A stretch of 58,468 nucleotides of DNA. Source: Sedimentisphaerales bacterium (GTDB taxonomy: Bacteria; Planctomycetota; Phycisphaerae; Sedimentisphaerales; UBA12454). Made by a program: the position numbers and the translations under genes. This document shows positions 2,023-40,118 of the stretch, one piece after another (within the stretch, counting starts at the first letter, position 1; every line of letters starts with the position of its first letter). A model generated the notes under the pieces. That model ran no database searches. It had not been told where the DNA came from and saw only the letters and a list, made by a program, of their open reading frames with translations. Location: NCBI GenBank assembly GCA_049691175.1, contig JBAVNP010000015.1, positions 1-58,468 of the forward strand, read 5' to 3'.

Positions 2023-3654
2023 TTAAAAGCGAAAGATTTTTCTCATCGCCCTGAAGGCTTCGAAAATCAAAATAAATGCCAAAAACAAAAGTATAGCCGC
2101 AATGATGCCAACTACAGAAAATCGGTATTGTTTTAACAGCAGAATCAGGCTCCAAATCGTCATAACAATCATAAAAACCATCGGGACGAGCACAAAAAAC
2201 GATTTTTTGCCGTTTTTTCTGAGCCATACAACAATAACCAATAGAACCAGCCCCGCCAATAGCTGATTCGTAGCGCCAAAGACCGGCCAAATTATTTTCC
2301 AGGCCGGTATTAATTTGCCGGCAGGGTCTTTAAAACTCATAAGCACAAATATTGCCGGTAAAATCAGGGTAGCAAGTGTGGACAGGCCGCGCCAACGGGT
2401 GTCGTTAAGCCCAAAAAATTCTTCAAAAATATATCGGTTCAATCTTGTAGCGGTATCTAAAGTTGTGAGAATGAAAGTGGACAGAGCTAAAAGCCCAAAA
2501 GAGTAACCGAGCTTTTGCGGTATCCCGAATACCGACAAAAATTTGCCCATAGCGGTGCCGTAAATTACCAAAGGCGCTTTAGTAATAAGCGGATCGTCTT
2601 TTGCTATCATAGCTACGGTAATCAAAGCTATGACAGCCACAAGCCCTTCTATCAGCATCGCGCCGTAAGCTATGGGTTTCGCATCAGATTCTTTGTTTAA
2701 CTGTTTTGAACTCGTTCCGGAAGCAACTATAGAATGAAAACCTGAACAGGCGCCGCAGGCTACCGTGATAAATAAAATCGGGAACGGTGAGCCTAACTGC
2801 GGGTCGGTCCAAACGGTAAAGGCCGGATAAGTAATAGAAAATCCGCCAAATAATATTCCCAAAAACCCGCCTATTACCGAGGCATAAAGCAAAAAACTCG
2901 ATAAATAATCCCTTGGCTGTAATAAAACCCATACCGGCATTACAGAAGCAGCGAAACAATAAAAAATCAGCAGCAAATCCCATGTCTTTGCAGGATTGCC
3001 GCCTGCAATCGCCAGAATTTTATCAGTGGATATAGGCATTTTTTGCCCCAGCCATACACATAAAAATACCAGAGGGACAAAAAACAGCGATGACCATAAT
3101 ACAGAGAATTTTAATCGATAAACAAAAGCCCCAAAACCAATCGCCAATGCAATAAACGCAATGGAAGAAGTAGCCACGCCTCCATTTTCAACAAAGGTGG
3201 CGGAAGTTAAATCCGTGAATACTGTCAGAACATATACAAGTGTCAACCAGATAAAAATCAGGAAAAGTTTATATGCCAGAGGTGACATATATTCTTTTGC
3301 AATTTCGGCAATAGAACGGGCCTTGTTGCGTATGGAAGCCATCAATGAGGAAAAATCGTGCACACCTCCGATAAAGATAGCGCCGAGGATAACCCAAAGA
3401 AGAACGGGAAACCAGCCAAAGGCGATTGCCGCGATAATCGGCCCGACCACAGGACCGGCACCCGCGATTGACGAAAAATGGTGTCCCAGCAGAACTGCTT
3501 TATGGGCCGGAACCCGGTCTATACCATCGTAATCGGTATGGCTTGGTGTGGGATTGTTATCATTTACGTCATACCGCTTTTCCAAAAATCTGCCATAAAC
3601 AAAATAAGCTATTAAAAATAATACAAAAGCAGATAAAAGAACTACGATTAACAT
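2023..3654 (-). CDS. cstA: carbon starvation protein A (peptide/pyruvate transporter family)
   Basis: 543-aa polytopic membrane ORF. The N-terminus (YGRFL...LLGHHFSSIAGAGPVVGPI) is characteristic of CstA. Confidence 0.88.
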   Translation of the reverse strand: MLIVVLLSAFVLFLIAYFVYGRFLEKRYDVNDNNPTPSHTDYDGIDRVPAHKAVLLGHHFSSIAGAGPVVGPIIAAIAFGWFPVLLWVILGAIFIGGVHDFSSLMASIRNKARSIAEIAKEYMSPLAYKLFLIFIWLTLVYVLTVFTDLTSATFVENGGVATSSIAFIALAIGFGAFVYRLKFSVLWSSLFFVPLVFLCVWLGQKMPISTDKILAIAGGNPAKTWDLLLIFYCFAASVMPVWVLLQPRDYLSSFLLYASVIGGFLGILFGGFSITYPAFTVWTDPQLGSPFPILFITVACGACSGFHSIVASGTSSKQLNKESDAKPIAYGAMLIEGLVAVIALITVAMIAKDDPLITKAPLVIYGTAMGKFLSVFGIPQKLGYSFGLLALSTFILTTLDTATRLNRYIFEEFFGLNDTRWRGLSTLATLILPAIFVLMSFKDPAGKLIPAWKIIWPVFGATNQLLAGLVLLVIVVWLRKNGKKSFFVLVPMVFMIVMTIWSLILLLKQYRFSVVGIIAAILLFLAFILIFEAFRAMRKIFRF

Positions 3655-3723: not shown

Positions 3724-4422
3724 TTAAGTTTTTTTCAAGCCGCTCGGTTCCTGCAGTCCGATTTTCTTGCCGGATTTCTGAAAATCAATGATTGCCTGTG
3801 CGGCTTTCTGCGGGTCATCGCAAACTGTAAAAACATTCATATCGCCAGGCTCAATGAACCTGTGTTCGGCCAGCATATCTTTTTTCATCCATTCGATCAG
3901 TCCCGCCCAGTAATCGCTGCCCATAAGAACTACAGGAAAATACGCCTGTTTGAATGTCTGAATCAGGACAAGGGCTTCAGTGAACTCATCCATTGTGCCG
4001 AATCCGCCGGGGAAAACGATAAAGCCGTTGGCGTATTTCAGGAACATCACCTTTCGGCAGAAAAAGTATCTGAAATGCAGCGAAAGATTCTGATCTTTGT
4101 TCGGCATCTGTTCGTGCGGCAGTTCGATATTCAGACCGATGCTTTTACCGCCGACCTGTGCCGCGCCCTTATTTGCCGCTTCCATTATTCCGCTGCCGCC
4201 GCCGGTAATAATCGCAAAGCCTGCCTTTGCTAAAATCGCCGCCGTTTCTTCCGCAAGTTTGTAATATTTGTTATCCGATTTTATTCGTGCCGAGCCGAAA
4301 AACGAAACAGCCGGCCCGATTGTCGCAAGCTCCTCAAAACCTTCGACGAATTCCGCCATTATCCTGAATACCCGCCAGGTTTCTTCCGTCGCCACGCCAA
4401 ATCTCGCTATTTTTTCGCTCAT
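3724..4422 (-). CDS. LOG family / TIGR00730 Rossmann-fold nucleotide-binding protein
   Basis: GGGSGIMEA and PGGFGTMDEF motifs. Start trimmed to the ATG at 4422 (MSEKIARFG), preceded by GGAAAGG. The longer ORF to 4461 runs into a repeat element. Confidence 0.82.
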   Translation of the reverse strand: MSEKIARFGVATEETWRVFRIMAEFVEGFEELATIGPAVSFFGSARIKSDNKYYKLAEETAAILAKAGFAIITGGGSGIMEAANKGAAQVGGKSIGLNIELPHEQMPNKDQNLSLHFRYFFCRKVMFLKYANGFIVFPGGFGTMDEFTEALVLIQTFKQAYFPVVLMGSDYWAGLIEWMKKDMLAEHRFIEPGDMNVFTVCDDPQKAAQAIIDFQKSGKKIGLQEPSGLKKT

Positions 4423-4441
4423 TGTGTTACCTTTCCATTTA

Positions 4442-4546
4442 CCCCCACACCAATGTAACAAGTTTTGAACATTTTTTTGATAAATATTCCATTTTTATTT
4501 TTTTCTCCATAACTTCCTCCCTTACACCAGGACATTGGTGTGGGGG
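4442..4546 (-). repeat. 105-nt element with perfect 15-bp terminal inverted repeats (CCCCCACACCAATGT / ACATTGGTGTGGGGG), copy 1
   Basis: TIRs at 4442-4456 and 4532-4546. The interior is homologous to the copy at 39341-39443 when read on the minus strand. Confidence 0.85.
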
Positions 4547-4547
4547 A

Positions 4548-5204
4548 TTACCACAGCTTTGGATTATCCGCTGCCGGACAGTATTTTGCAATCGGGCAGA
4601 TGCCGCAATCCGGCTTGCGCGCTTTGCATATATTTCTGCCGTGAAAGATAAGCAGATGGCTGAAAAAAGTCCAGTTTTCCTTCGGCACTATTTCCATAAG
4701 GTCAATTTCGAGCTTTTCCGGATTATCTGTGTTGGCCGAAAGCTCAAGTCTTCTGGATAGTCTCAAAACGTGCGTATCGCAAACTATGCCCGGAATGCCG
4801 AACGCGTTGCCTAAAACCACATTTGCCGTTTTTCTGCCGACGCCGTTTAGCTTCAATAGTTCATCCATCGTGTTCGGCACTTTGTTATTATACTCATCTG
4901 TTATTTTTTTGCAGGCATTTTTTATATTGAGAGCCTTGTTGCGGTAAAAGCCTGTGCTTTTTATATCCTGCTCGATTTGTCCAATCGGCGCATCAGCCCA
5001 GTCTTTTGCGGTTTTGTATTTTTTGAAAAGTGTTTTTGTTACGATATTTACCCTCACATCGGTGCACTGAGCGGAAAGTATCGTTGCGATAAGAAGCTGC
5101 AGAGGGTCGGAATGTTCGAGTGCGCATTTCGCCTGCGGATATGTCTTCTTCAATATCGGCCAAATTGCCTTTACCCTCTCTTTCGCTTTTTGCTTGTCGG
5201 CCAT
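4548..5204 (-). CDS. nth: endonuclease III
   Basis: HhH-GPD motifs (LNGVGRKTANVVL) and a C-terminal 4Fe-4S cluster (CKARKPDCGICPIAKYC). Confidence 0.92.
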   Translation of the reverse strand: MADKQKAKERVKAIWPILKKTYPQAKCALEHSDPLQLLIATILSAQCTDVRVNIVTKTLFKKYKTAKDWADAPIGQIEQDIKSTGFYRNKALNIKNACKKITDEYNNKVPNTMDELLKLNGVGRKTANVVLGNAFGIPGIVCDTHVLRLSRRLELSANTDNPEKLEIDLMEIVPKENWTFFSHLLIFHGRNICKARKPDCGICPIAKYCPAADNPKLW

Positions 5205-10483: not shown

Positions 10484-10751
10484 AACTTTATCCCCGCACC
10501 AATTACCAGTCCCTTGTTTCGATAAAGACTTCGTGTCCATATTTCTTACTCCAATAAACTCATCCCCCACCCCTATCCATCGGCGCGGGGGTCAAGCCGA
10601 CATTATATATAAACCGCTGCGGCCTTGCAAACCTATTCAAAATACGGTATCAGCGGATTCAGCCATACCTTACGGCAAAACAGCCTCCCCTTTCCTAACC
10701 CTCTATTTGTTAGATATTTGCAAAATATTATATAAAATTTATAAAAAATAG

Positions 10752-38079: not shown

Positions 38080-39339
38080 ATGAAAATTTTAGATAAATCA
38101 ACAAAAAGGGAAGAGCAGATTTATCAGCTCACAACGCTGGTGGCCGGCGGTTTTGCGCTCACAGAAGTGCTGGATAAACTCGCAAGGGCCGCTGTAGAAA
38201 TTACCGGCGTCTCGGCCTGCTCAATAAGACTTTTAGACGACGAAACTGGCGAATTGAAAATGAGAAGCACCTTCGGCCTGAGCGAAGAATACAGGAACAA
38301 AGGCCCCGTAACAAAGGACGACCCCGTTATCAAAGCCGCTTTCGCAGGCCAGGCCGTCGTCATAGACAATATGGGGGACGATGACCGCGTAAAGTATAAA
38401 CAAGCCTCGAAAAAAGAAGGCATTGTCAGTCAGCTTACCGTAAAAATGGAATTCAAAAATAAACCCGTCGGTGTGCTGCGGCTGTATAGGCCGACATACG
38501 GCGGTTTTACGGAAAGTGATATCTCTCTTGCAAGGTCGGTAGCTTCGCAGTGCGCCGTGGCGATTACCAACGCAAAAAACTACGCAAGAGCTCTGCAGGG
38601 CGCACAGATGGCAGAGCAGGTGAGACTGGCAGGCATTATTCAGAGAAGAATGATACCGCAGACCGCCCCGAAAATGCCGCCGCTTGATATTGCTGCCGTA
38701 TATAAACCCTGCTTCGGCATCGGCGGAGACCTTTACGACTTTATAAAGCTCGATGAAGACAATCTTGTCGTTGCCATAGCCGATGTAATTGGAAAGGGAA
38801 TTCCGGCCGCTCTTATGATGAGCTCTTTCAGAGGTATGATACGCGCTTACGCCGACGGCGGACACAAAAGACATACCCTCGCGGAAATCATCCAGAAACT
38901 CAATGCTACTGCCTGCTATGAATGCAGAGACGGGGAATTTATCACCTTGTTCTACGCGATTATCAACACAAAAGCAAAAACCATCACTTACTGCAACTGC
39001 GGCCATGAACCAGCTCTGCTGCTCAGAGGCGGTAAAATACGAGAACTGAAAAAAGGAGGACTCGTGTTCGGCGTCTTAAAAAATGCCGTTTACGAAATAG
39101 AAACAATTGAGCTTAAAGCTGATGACCGTCTGTTGTTTTACACTGACGGCCTCATCGACGCCGTTAACTTCAGCGAGAAAACCTGGGGAGTGCAGAACCT
39201 CTATAAAACCTTCAGACAATACGCAGACGGCACAGCCCAGCAGATTGTTAATTATATACTTGCTTATAGAAGACGCTTTATCGGCCTTGCACGCCAGGCA
39301 GATGATACAAGTATTGTAGCCATAAGAGTTACAAAATAA
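38080..39339 (+). CDS. GAF-domain PP2C-type (SpoIIE/RsbU-like) serine phosphatase
   Basis: N-terminal GAF pattern. C-terminal SpoIIE-type PP2C (GGDLYDF, DVIGKGIPAAL, YTDGL, DDTSIVA). Confidence 0.88.
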   Translation: MKILDKSTKREEQIYQLTTLVAGGFALTEVLDKLARAAVEITGVSACSIRLLDDETGELKMRSTFGLSEEYRNKGPVTKDDPVIKAAFAGQAVVIDNMGDDDRVKYKQASKKEGIVSQLTVKMEFKNKPVGVLRLYRPTYGGFTESDISLARSVASQCAVAITNAKNYARALQGAQMAEQVRLAGIIQRRMIPQTAPKMPPLDIAAVYKPCFGIGGDLYDFIKLDEDNLVVAIADVIGKGIPAALMMSSFRGMIRAYADGGHKRHTLAEIIQKLNATACYECRDGEFITLFYAIINTKAKTITYCNCGHEPALLLRGGKIRELKKGGLVFGVLKNAVYEIETIELKADDRLLFYTDGLIDAVNFSEKTWGVQNLYKTFRQYADGTAQQIVNYILAYRRRFIGLARQADDTSIVAIRVTK

Positions 39340-39340
39340 A

Positions 39341-39443
39341 CCCCCACACCAATGTCTTGGCGTAGGGGAAAGTATTGAGGTAAAAAATGACAATGGACAT
39401 TTTTATTAAAAAAGCATTCGAAAATTTTACATTGGTGTGGGGG
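39341..39443 (+). repeat. 103-nt element with perfect 15-bp terminal inverted repeats, copy 2
   Basis: TIRs at 39341-39355 and 39429-39443. Begins 1 nt after the phosphatase stop and ends 3 nt before the cmk ATG. Confidence 0.85.
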
Positions 39444-39446
39444 TAA

Positions 39447-40118
39447 ATGCCTAAACTGATAATCACAATTGACGGCCCCGCGGGAAGCGGAAAAAGCACG
39501 ACAGCAAGACTGCTCGCCGAAAAAATCGACGCCGCCTTTCTCGATACCGGCGCAATGTATAGAGCCGTAACCCTCGCCGCTATGCAAAACCAGTTAGACC
39601 CGGCCAATGTTGAAACTGTCGAAAAGTTAATCGACAGCACTGATTTCAAATTTGAAATCACAAACAACCAAATGGCTGTAAAAATAAACAACAAAGATGT
39701 TACCGAACAAATAAGAGACCCGAAAGTTACGGAAAACGTGCGATTTATAGCATCGCAGCCGTCCTTGCGCAGCAGGCTCGTAAAAATGCAGCAAAATTTC
39801 GCTCAAAAATATCAAAAAATCGTAACCGAAGGCAGAGACCAGGGGACTGTTGTCTTTCCGGACGCAGATTATAAATTCTTTCTTACCGCCGACTCTGCCC
39901 GGCGGACAAAAAGACGGGCCGAAGAGCTAACCGAAAAAGGTCTTAAAGTTGACCTGACAAAACTCCGCAAAGAAATTGAAATCAGAGACACCGCCGACAA
40001 AAACAGGAACACCGGCCCTCTCGTGCCGGCCAAGGACGCTATAATTATAGATAATACGAACCTTACGCTTGAGCAGACCGTAAATGAAATCCTTAAAACC
40101 ATTAATAAAAACAGCTAA
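39447..40118 (+). CDS. cmk: cytidylate kinase
   Basis: IITIDGPAGSGKST P-loop and Cmk pattern. Conserved cmk...rpsA neighbourhood. Confidence 0.95.
   Translation: MPKLIITIDGPAGSGKSTTARLLAEKIDAAFLDTGAMYRAVTLAAMQNQLDPANVETVEKLIDSTDFKFEITNNQMAVKINNKDVTEQIRDPKVTENVRFIASQPSLRSRLVKMQQNFAQKYQKIVTEGRDQGTVVFPDADYKFFLTADSARRTKRRAEELTEKGLKVDLTKLRKEIEIRDTADKNRNTGPLVPAKDAIIIDNTNLTLEQTVNEILKTINKNS

Follow-up and report, generated by a model that had tools for sequence, protein, structure and literature searches.

Miniature inverted-repeat elements at operon junctions of a Sedimentisphaerales bacterium and their association with a small GIY-YIG nuclease gene

Introduction

Mycobacterial interspersed repetitive units (MIRUs; Supply et al. 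1997, as reviewed in PMC3184786 and PMC12548453) are 40-100-bp repeats lying between operon genes. Their sites may be filled or empty, and they have tetranucleotide direct repeats together with imperfect inverted ends. They are reported to insert at start codons and contain an internal open reading frame (ORF) that has the orientation of the neighbouring genes, overlaps or abuts them with its ends and is coupled to the downstream gene (PMC12548453, PMC3184786). The Ssn family comprises single-domain GIY-YIG nucleases of about 90 amino acids (~94), which cleave single-stranded DNA site-specifically at the hairpin and whose genes are bracketed by dispersed cognate NTS/SRM hairpin repeats (PMC11893778); its describers likened this arrangement of gene and repeats to an insertion sequence (Chenal et al., Nat Commun 2025). 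Classical miniature inverted-repeat transposable elements (MITEs) such as Correia/NEMIS, ERIC, RUP and bcr1 measure 70-300 bp, have 15-30-bp inverted ends and short target duplications, encode no transposase and are mobilised in trans (PMC3733652), and the repetitive extragenic palindromic (REP/REPIN-RAYT) systems consist of dispersed hairpins with a GTAG or CGTC head (PMC3733652; Bertels & Rainey 2011 therein). Here we analyze short elements with perfect inverted ends that occupy operon junctions in a 58,468-nt stretch of DNA (the window; contig JBAVNP010000015.1, GenBank assembly GCA_049691175.1) from a Sedimentisphaerales bacterium of the Phycisphaerae. The elements are likely to be gene-less MITE copies of a ~300-bp element that encodes a GIY-YIG nuclease, and to belong to a subfamily, the A-type, in which a mini-ORF would relay ribosomes to the downstream gene.

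Results

Copies in the window

The window corresponds to contig C15 of the assembly of this organism (genome G000; 2.3 Mb, 331 contigs, 44.5% GC, 90% complete). The 15-mer CCCCCACACCAATGT has exactly four matches in it (4442-4456 +, 4532-4546 -, 39341-39355 + and 39429-39443 -), forming two inverted pairs that delimit units of 105 and 103 nt (copies 1 and 2, Table 1). In shuffled sequences, four matches were reached in just 1 of 100 cases, with three mismatches allowed. The two copies share 81% identity overall and 74% in their interiors, and although they lie on opposite strands of the window both are co-oriented with their flanking genes. These data bear out the initial annotation as regards the perfect 15-bp terminal inverted repeats (TIRs), the beginning of each copy 1 nt past an upstream TAA, the common orientation relative to the flanking genes and interiors alike at about three quarters of positions. 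The element had also been counted twice, which is correct for the perfect copies, a third and degenerate one (copy 3) being present as well. A TAAATG does follow both copies, yet in copy 1 its ATG opens only the frame ATGGAAAGGTAA and not the LOG-family gene.

The insertion in front of cmk left the GAF-PP2C gene three codons shorter than in relatives, and the mini-ORF of copy 3 is fused in frame to the BamD/YfiO-like gene. Copy 3 is orthologous to locus L010 of the related genome G003. The three-codon frame ATGGAAAGGTAA (4427-4438, minus strand) opens at the last base of the right TAAA of copy 1 and overlaps the Shine-Dalgarno (SD) sequence (GGAAAGG) of the LOG-family gene. The mechanically listed LOG ORF (3724-4461) is over-extended into copy 1.

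Table 1. Coordinates of the elements, their parts and related features
Feature	Position	Strand	Description
Copy 1	4442..4546	-	105-nt A-type MITE between nth and LOG-family gene; perfect 15-nt arms
nth	4548-5204	-	Upstream of copy 1; stop codon 4548-4550
LOG-family gene	3724-4422	-	Start codon 4422-4420; 20 nt past the ATG of the copy 1 TAAATG
Left target copy, copy 1	4547..4550	-	TAAT; its TAA is the nth stop codon
Right target copy, copy 1	4438..4441	-	TAAA; its TAA is the mini-ORF stop
Mini-ORF, copy 1	4439..4510	-	MEKKIKMEYLSKKCSKLVTLVWG plus TAA; SD-like GGGAGGAAGTT ahead
Arm 2, copy 1	4514..4531 (approximate limits)	-	Imperfect internal complement of the 5' arm; alternative local hairpin in constrained folds
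Copy 2	39341..39443	+	103-nt A-type MITE between GAF-PP2C (SpoIIE) gene and cmk
GAF-PP2C (SpoIIE) phosphatase gene	38080-39339	+	Upstream of copy 2
cmk	39447-40118	+	Downstream of copy 2
Left target copy, copy 2	39337..39340	+	TAAA; its TAA now ends the PP2C gene
Right target copy, copy 2	39444..39447	+	TAAA; TAA is the mini-ORF stop; last A is the A of the cmk ATG
Mini-ORF, copy 2	39387..39446	+	MTMDIFIKKAFENFTLVWG plus TAA; GAGGTAAAAA ahead; stop-to-start spacing to cmk 0 nt
Arm 2, copy 2	39357..39368	+	Pairs with 39341-39352 as a 28-nt local hairpin (predicted)
3' arm, copy 2	39429..39443	+	Holds the sole SD-like run (GGTGTGGGGG) for cmk; predicted minimum-energy fold pairs the arm with 39341-39355
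Copy 3	10491..10591	-	Degenerate A-type; 7 nt upstream of BamD/YfiO-like lipoprotein gene
tRNA-carrying units	L055:804-906; L095:5102-5205; L087:4818-4925; L096:5536-5645; L110:1395-1495		CPR/Patescibacteria
TTAGCCCCCACCCCTGCGGTGGGGGGCTAA-like hairpins	G000 C182:1164 and 3702; C192:4609; C231:4349; C261:1746; C176:3002; C179:5914		Separate dispersed GC-rich family

Empty sites and target duplications

Comparison with relatives revealed empty sites at both loci. The nth|LOG site carries the element in G000 and in the closely related G002 alone; it is empty in G001, G003, G004 and G005, where it reads …TGGTAAA(N11-12)ATG. The PP2C|cmk site is empty in three relatives with cmk genes 77-84% identical (L011-L013), in which the PP2C stop overlaps the cmk ATG (…AAAAATGGCTGA…), and filled in close relatives, some of them with a replaced interior. 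Excision in silico of the element together with one flanking 4-mer restores the spacing of the empty site, whereas excision of the element alone leaves 4 nt extra. Across 51 copies the same 4-mer is present on both flanks in 24, where shuffled partners predict 10, and these matching pairs include sequences other than TAAA (TGAA, CAGA, TTGA, TAGA). On insertion, members of the family duplicate a 4-bp T-N-N-A-like target, which is TAAA here, and both perfect window copies landed on a TAAA overlapping the upstream stop at a tight stop/start junction. The start of each copy 1 nt after a stop and the TAAATG that follows it therefore represent the two copies of this duplicated TAAA. In the metagenome contigs covering the cmk locus, only the reference and replaced-interior alleles were recovered, and the empty allele was not found.

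Flanks of the form TTCA…TAAA (or its reverse complement TTTA…TGAA) and TACA…TAAA surround many copies in metagenomes and in the candidate phyla radiation (CPR), as well as those of loci L025 and L026; recurrent unequal flanks in G000 are found at C91:24741-24836, C224:9644-9746 and C128:12930-13032. An insertion orientation fixed relative to TAAA, as in IS200/IS605-like elements, was considered and is ruled out by full-length copies with both TAAA..TAAA and TTTA..TTTA flanks.

The repeat family in the genome and its relatives

Iterated nhmmer searches combined with a scan for arm pairs recovered ~30 copies in G000, the figure for congeners being 20-50 each. The G000 copies are 100-110 bp long with arms of 13-18 nt and occur singly, not in tandem; size and TIRs agree with the definition of a MITE (PMC3733652), as do the multiple copies, the target duplication and the presence/absence polymorphism. 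Family arms are distributed patchily among relatives. Counted per strand, they number ~24 in G000, ~40 in G001, ~28 in G002 and ~23 in G003, compared with ~5 in G005 and 0-1 in G004 of the same genus; in a second genus they number ~30 in G034, 10-17 in G036 and 6-8 in G017, and most other family members have 0-3.

Two main forms were distinguished in G000. The A-type (11 copies; found in two genera of one Phycisphaerae family) consists of a 5' arm, an adjoining imperfect internal complement of it, an A-rich segment with an SD sequence and an ORF, and a 3' arm. The B-type (~18 copies) has 17-nt arms such as CCCCCACACCTATTTGC and occurs in varied intergenic contexts. In addition, hairpin-only forms of 28-29 nt place arm against arm and have 4-nt flanking repeats of their own (G000 C116:7159-7187, L029, L033; ten or more in G001), some of them being inserted within other copies.

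At the cmk site, the flanks of G000 and G002 are 93-94% identical and the interiors 58%, and the G002 interior is 86% identical to that of a G000 copy at another locus; the replaced-interior allele also occurs on environmental contigs. Interiors have therefore been exchanged or re-inserted, the arms persisting.

Other hairpins were noticed alongside the family. The A-type copies at L022:201-328 (G002) and L024:201-329 (G003) carry a nested GC-rich hairpin (CCCCCAC(T/A)CTTGCTTTCG…CGTGGGGG) in the 5' arm region, which leaves the mini-ORF intact. A separate dispersed family of GC-rich hairpins in G000 (Table 1), unrelated in sequence to these arms, may be of the REP or terminator type.

No match to Rfam was obtained at gathering thresholds, and a permissive scan of copy 2 returned weak sub-threshold matches only. 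A literature search with the arm sequences gave only unrelated primers and CRISPR repeats, and one on MITEs in Planctomycetes/Phycisphaerae gave nothing specific.

Placement and mini-ORF of the A-type copies

A-type copies occur only at operon junctions, in gene orientation and with a start codon 0-19 nt downstream, usually at 3-7 nt. In G000 all 11 lie between co-directional genes in the orientation of these, the downstream start codon following after 3-19 nt according to refined start calls (3-7 nt in 9/11). Only 7.6% of the TAAA sites in the genome stand in such a relation to a start codon (P ~5e-13 for 11/11), and just 1/18 B-type copies is so placed. Including relatives, the arrangement was found at ~22 distinct sites. 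The genes downstream are functionally unrelated and encode, among others, ribosomal proteins L11 and L14 (rplK, rplN), tyrS, cmk, a thioredoxin-reductase-like protein, glycosyltransferases and the BamD-like lipoprotein. Since essential genes lie downstream of A-type copies, the insertions cannot abolish downstream expression.

The A-rich segment contains a purine-rich SD sequence followed by an ATG frame of 13-23 codons, the mini-ORF, which reads through the 3' arm (…T-L-V-W-G) and stops at the TAA of the right-hand target copy. Among 33 A-type copies from G000 and relatives, on which the mini-ORF and folding counts are based, an ATG frame runs through the 3' arm in 30. In 22 of the 33, the mini-ORF stop lies -4 to +3 nt from the downstream start, and two copies are in-frame fusions to the downstream gene. 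Between G000 and G003, orthologous mini-ORFs have diverged through substitutions and changes of whole codons, with the frame kept (MKFVSKKQFTLVWG vs MKSLSKRQFTLVLG; MKMESLFKQQFVLVWG vs MKMKSLSKRQFTLVWG). SD-like motifs precede ~39% of long G000 genes vs 10% in a control window, making SD-based reasoning reasonable for this host.

Folding and conservation of the stem

In 30/33 A-type copies the predicted minimum-energy fold pairs the 5' and 3' arms, with energies of about -22 to -52 kcal/mol, mostly -25 to -41. This pairing would bury GGGGG, the only SD-like run before the downstream start. Constrained folds in which the 3' arm is kept unpaired place the 5' arm against the internal arm. On the antisense strand of copy 2, the local hairpin is followed by TTTATTTTGT, a terminator-like arrangement. 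The arms covary: over 48 copies, 88% of arm positions pair and 11/18 pairs have changed on both sides, values reached by 0/500 shuffles. They are also better conserved than what they enclose, with 106/120 identical arm positions and 172/252 identical interior positions summed over four orthologous G000/G003 pairs. Among the RNA runs searched for the locus, none contained it.

A full-length form encoding a small nuclease

The ends of these elements begin with CCCCCACACC, and the same ends flank a nuclease gene. In G001 (C14:7226-7522; L179:201-497), perfect 16-nt arms (CCCTCACACCAATGGT) and a TCTA/TCTA duplication delimit a 297-bp element with a single ORF of 85 amino acids. Its product matches the Pfam GIY-YIG domain over residues 1-68 (7.5e-17), and the nearest solved structures are those of UPF0213 proteins. 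The element is inserted in the overlap of the pstA stop and the pstB start (ATGGTAG). The stop of the nuclease gene overlaps an ATG in the 3' arm (ATATGACC) that reads in frame into pstB, and so the element rebuilds the start of the host gene. In G002, a full-length copy with 84% identity occupies another site.

Metagenomes scanned for CCCCCACACC…(255-285 nt)…GGTGTGGGGG gave at least 120 matches. Among the 120 matches listed, 76 contain 84-90-aa GIY-YIG ORFs whose products are homologues of the G001 protein, with E-values as low as 1e-41; the full-length units listed have arms of 14-17 nt and total 275-305 bp, with a mode of 303. In 39 of the 68 assessable cases among these matches, a co-oriented ORF begins between -22 and +40 nt relative to the 3' end, frequently in the arm itself. 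Two more distant nuclease genes (46-48% identical; G005 and G034) have related yet different flanking arms (…CCCGCACCTTCT…), as expected if enzyme and ends co-evolve.

G000 has two nuclease paralogues. One of them, a 94-aa GIY-YIG gene at C67:3234-3434, is followed ~10 nt past its stop by ATTCCCGCCTGCGCGGGAAT, a hairpin of the dRS3/NTS type known in the Neisseria form ATTCCC-N8-GGGAAT, so that gene and hairpin represent a second, Ssn-like nuclease/hairpin pair in this genome. A likeness between the mini-ORF and the N-terminus of the nuclease (YILKSKK vs KYLSKRQ) was also considered and found unsupported by nhmmer.

Distribution beyond Phycisphaerae

Species-representative genomes were scanned for the same 10-nt ends 60-90 nt apart, yielding at least 119 stretches where 20-35 were estimated by chance. 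In nearly all of the matches listed, the arms extend over 11-19 nt and are bordered by 4-nt repeats (TAAA, TATA, TTGA, CAAG…). Short forms among them are spread over many Patescibacteria/CPR lineages as well as Margulisiibacteriota, Omnitrophota, Nitrospinota, Bdellovibrionales and further groups. Complete tRNA genes lie between the arms (CCCCCACACC…GGTGTGGGGG) in several CPR genomes, in units of ~100-110 nt (Table 1), the tRNAs being Arg-TCT, Gln-CTG, Gly-CCC, Ala-CGC and Arg-CCG. This suggests either that the tRNA is carried as cargo or that tRNA genes are a preferred landing site.

Discussion

Origin of the elements and a possible ribosome relay

The MITE-like insertion that the initial annotation had offered as one of two options is confirmed by the sites found empty in relatives, the duplicated 4-bp targets, the number of copies and their uneven occurrence among relatives. 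The other, a structured RNA, is compatible with insertion and is not an alternative to it; a role as RNA could plausibly have followed from the insertion. A site and orientation preference had been suggested as well, which is real for the A-type as placement at stop and start codons, the exact pattern being simply that of the duplicated TAAA. The statement that no described family has these termini still holds for the termini, although the kind of element has published relatives in the MIRUs and the Ssn/SRM pairs. The internal mini-ORF and the nuclease-encoding parent were absent from that earlier description.

The interpretation we favor, and consider likely, joins these findings: the window elements would be gene-less derivatives of the ~300-bp GIY-YIG element, and the A-type would owe its position to a ribosome relay. 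In the operon mRNA, which presumably includes the element, the 5' and 3' arms would pair and hide the SD-like GGGGG before the downstream start. Ribosomes that initiate on the exposed mini-ORF would translate the 3' arm, melt the stem and end on the TAA of the target duplication beside the downstream start, where re-initiation could take place, and ribosomes finishing the upstream gene would also melt the adjoining 5' arm. The mini-ORF thereby probably hands ribosomes to the downstream gene and makes the insertion tolerable. Such a relay would let an A-type element sit harmlessly ahead of essential genes, antisense copies or copies without a relay being purged. It is in line with two models of translational coupling, 'RNA unfolding' and 're-initiation' (PMC12548453). 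A stable stem directly past a stop may also stall terminating ribosomes, as has been reported for REPs (cited in PMC12306157).

That the ~85-residue GIY-YIG nuclease is itself the mobilising enzyme is a more tentative proposal, for which we judge the chances to be somewhat less than even. Under it, the nuclease, cognate or paralogous, would move the elements, the ~280-300-bp unit would be among the smallest autonomous transposons and its derivatives would be intercistronic cassettes spread across phyla.

Several observations weigh against one or another part of this interpretation. As to the relay, the canonical ...LVWG-TAA frame is lost in 10/33 A-type copies, and 3/33 are without an ORF through the 3' arm. 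The orientation bias could reflect, as an alternative or in addition, avoidance of an antisense terminator-like hairpin with a T-rich tail. As to insertion, about half of the copies have unequal flanking 4-mers, and the unequal pairs TTCA..TAAA and TACA..TAAA recur in several phyla, full-length copies included, so that simple duplication followed by random decay is inadequate as an explanation. As to descent, G000 interiors are 61% identical at the median and 76% at most, which argues against a recent burst; as the copies are this old and their arms are nevertheless near-perfect, selection in situ or copy-to-copy conversion is needed. Neither G000 (90% complete) nor G003 yielded a cognate nuclease gene; mobilisation in these genomes would depend on a paralogue or lies in the past. 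The similarity between the MITEs and the 297-bp element is confined to the arms. The cargo between arms is variable (mini-ORF, tRNA genes, unrelated sequence), and the nuclease ORF could itself be cargo. To our knowledge, no GIY-YIG enzyme is known for strand transfer.

Alternative explanations

The best surviving alternative, though an unlikely one, is an ordinary MITE moved by a DDE transposase with 4-bp staggered cuts (e.g. IS1380/piggyBac-like), the GIY-YIG ORF being a passenger. Dimeric DDE enzymes typically duplicate 4 bp at T-N-N-A-like sites, and IS1380 elements have ends starting with CC and make 4-bp duplications. The diversity of cargo between the arms would also suit such an origin, and G000 does contain an IS1380-family gene on C76, yet that element is without CCCCCACACC ends. 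Among the copy-rich relatives, DDE_Tnp_1 is absent from G001, G002 and G003, and DDE_Tnp_1_4 is absent from G001 and G003 and represented by a short fragment only in G002. No arm pair 141-6000 nt apart encloses a transposase in G000, nor does any kb-scale arm pair in G001 or at the 119 multi-phylum loci; at these, the ORFs lying between paired arms belong to ordinary host genes. Of the 275-305-bp metagenome arm pairs listed, 63% carry the same nuclease family and there is no other recurrent ORF, and the arms co-vary with the nuclease sub-lineages. As a separate observation, the C76 transposase gene (DDE_Tnp_1_4; C76:2680-3967) is split by a frameshift near 3280.

Much less probable is a REP/REPIN-like hairpin repeat spread by a resident Y1 transposase of the RAYT/TIRYT type acting on single-stranded hairpins. 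The covarying arms and the hairpin-only forms, which insert into other copies, would agree with it, and Y1_Tnp genes occur in 25/26 family genomes. However, their presence is uncorrelated with copy number (G036 has copies without Y1_Tnp, and G004 has Y1_Tnp without copies), and no G000 copy adjoins a Y1_Tnp gene. Y1 elements make no target duplication. The ends of the present elements start with CCCCC and are without the GTAG or CGTC head (PMC3733652).

An immobile, host-evolved cis-regulatory RNA (attenuator, thermometer or processing stem), whose copies would form a regulon, is just as improbable. It would account for a closing stem that is predicted to bury the SD sequence and for the alternative hairpin, as well as for arms conserved at orthologous sites and a strictly sense orientation. 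Against it stand the empty sites of congeners at both loci and the flanking duplications, the functionally unrelated downstream genes, the occurrence of the same ends around a nuclease gene and across phyla, and the lack of any Rfam family match. Regulatory RNA as the exclusive explanation is contradicted by these data; a co-opted secondary regulatory role may exist.

A chance duplicated palindrome, which has nothing in its favor beyond the shortness of the arms, is excluded by the ~30 genomic copies, by hundreds in relatives and other phyla and by the shuffling result for the window.

Implications

Should the mobilising role of the nuclease hold, an enzyme class not known to transpose DNA would be moving elements, and gene-less cassettes would be colonising the stop/start junctions of core operons with a relay of their own, those of CPR even carrying tRNA genes. 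The A-type copies suggest how insertions ahead of rplK, rplN, tyrS and cmk may survive, namely via their own translation hand-over, a principle so far suggested only for mycobacterial MIRUs. For annotation, the elements shift predicted starts and create spurious N-terminal extensions, such as 233-aa 'cmk' variants and over-extended LOG and pstB ORFs. The arms and mini-ORF may also represent a compact natural translational-coupling module for the design of synthetic operons.

Relation to described systems

The REP/RAYT systems share with this family dispersed short hairpins with compensatory changes and a small single-copy nuclease-type gene flanked by the repeats. They differ in that their enzyme is an HUH tyrosine transposase, in contrast to the GIY-YIG protein found here, and in that REPs make no target duplication. 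Classical MITEs are likewise found next to genes, with which they are co-transcribed, and fold into strong RNA hairpins, but are derived from or attributed to DDE insertion sequences, and none has been reported with a GIY-YIG parent or with a built-in SD sequence and ORF ending at the downstream start.

Judged by analogy, MIRUs are the closest functional counterpart. Like them, A-type copies sit between co-oriented genes at a start codon (11/11 in G000, ~22 distinct sites) and have an ORF whose stop overlaps or abuts the downstream start (22/33 copies, plus two fusions). In contrast, MIRUs occur in tandem arrays, are GC-rich, belong to a different phylum and have no long closing stem of perfect pairing; neither an encoded enzyme nor a full-length parent is known for them, and it is a distinct feature of the A-type that the mini-ORF stops in the duplicated target.

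At the molecular level the closest analogue appears to be the Ssn family. The protein described here is likewise a single-domain GIY-YIG protein (85 aa), its gene is flanked on both sides by a dispersed repeat (G001, G002, metagenomes), and the parent nuclease is 48% identical over the catalytic core to the G000 paralogue with the NTS-like hairpin ATTCCCGCCTGCGCGGGAAT. The flanking arms, however, are two halves of one hairpin, in contrast to the two complete hairpins of Ssn, and the C-terminal third of the protein differs. The SRM motif (HGTCWYN(0-2)YYVSBRHN(0-5)WNVSBRGN(0-2)RNCYNB) has no match on either strand of copy 1, copy 2, a hairpin-only copy or the 297-bp element. Target duplications, empty sites, start-codon placement, MITEs with cargo such as tRNA genes and a ribosome relay are not described for the published system. 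Because the SRM motif is unmatched and the C-terminal third is different, the nuclease was not assigned to Ssn; it is probably a lineage related to UPF0213 and Ssn proteins that works similarly. If the link with the nuclease holds, the functionally puzzling Ssn/SRM-type pairing would gain direct genomic evidence of transposon-like behaviour, in the form of target duplications, empty sites and miniature derivatives, from lineages (Phycisphaerae, CPR and others) whose mobile DNA is little known.

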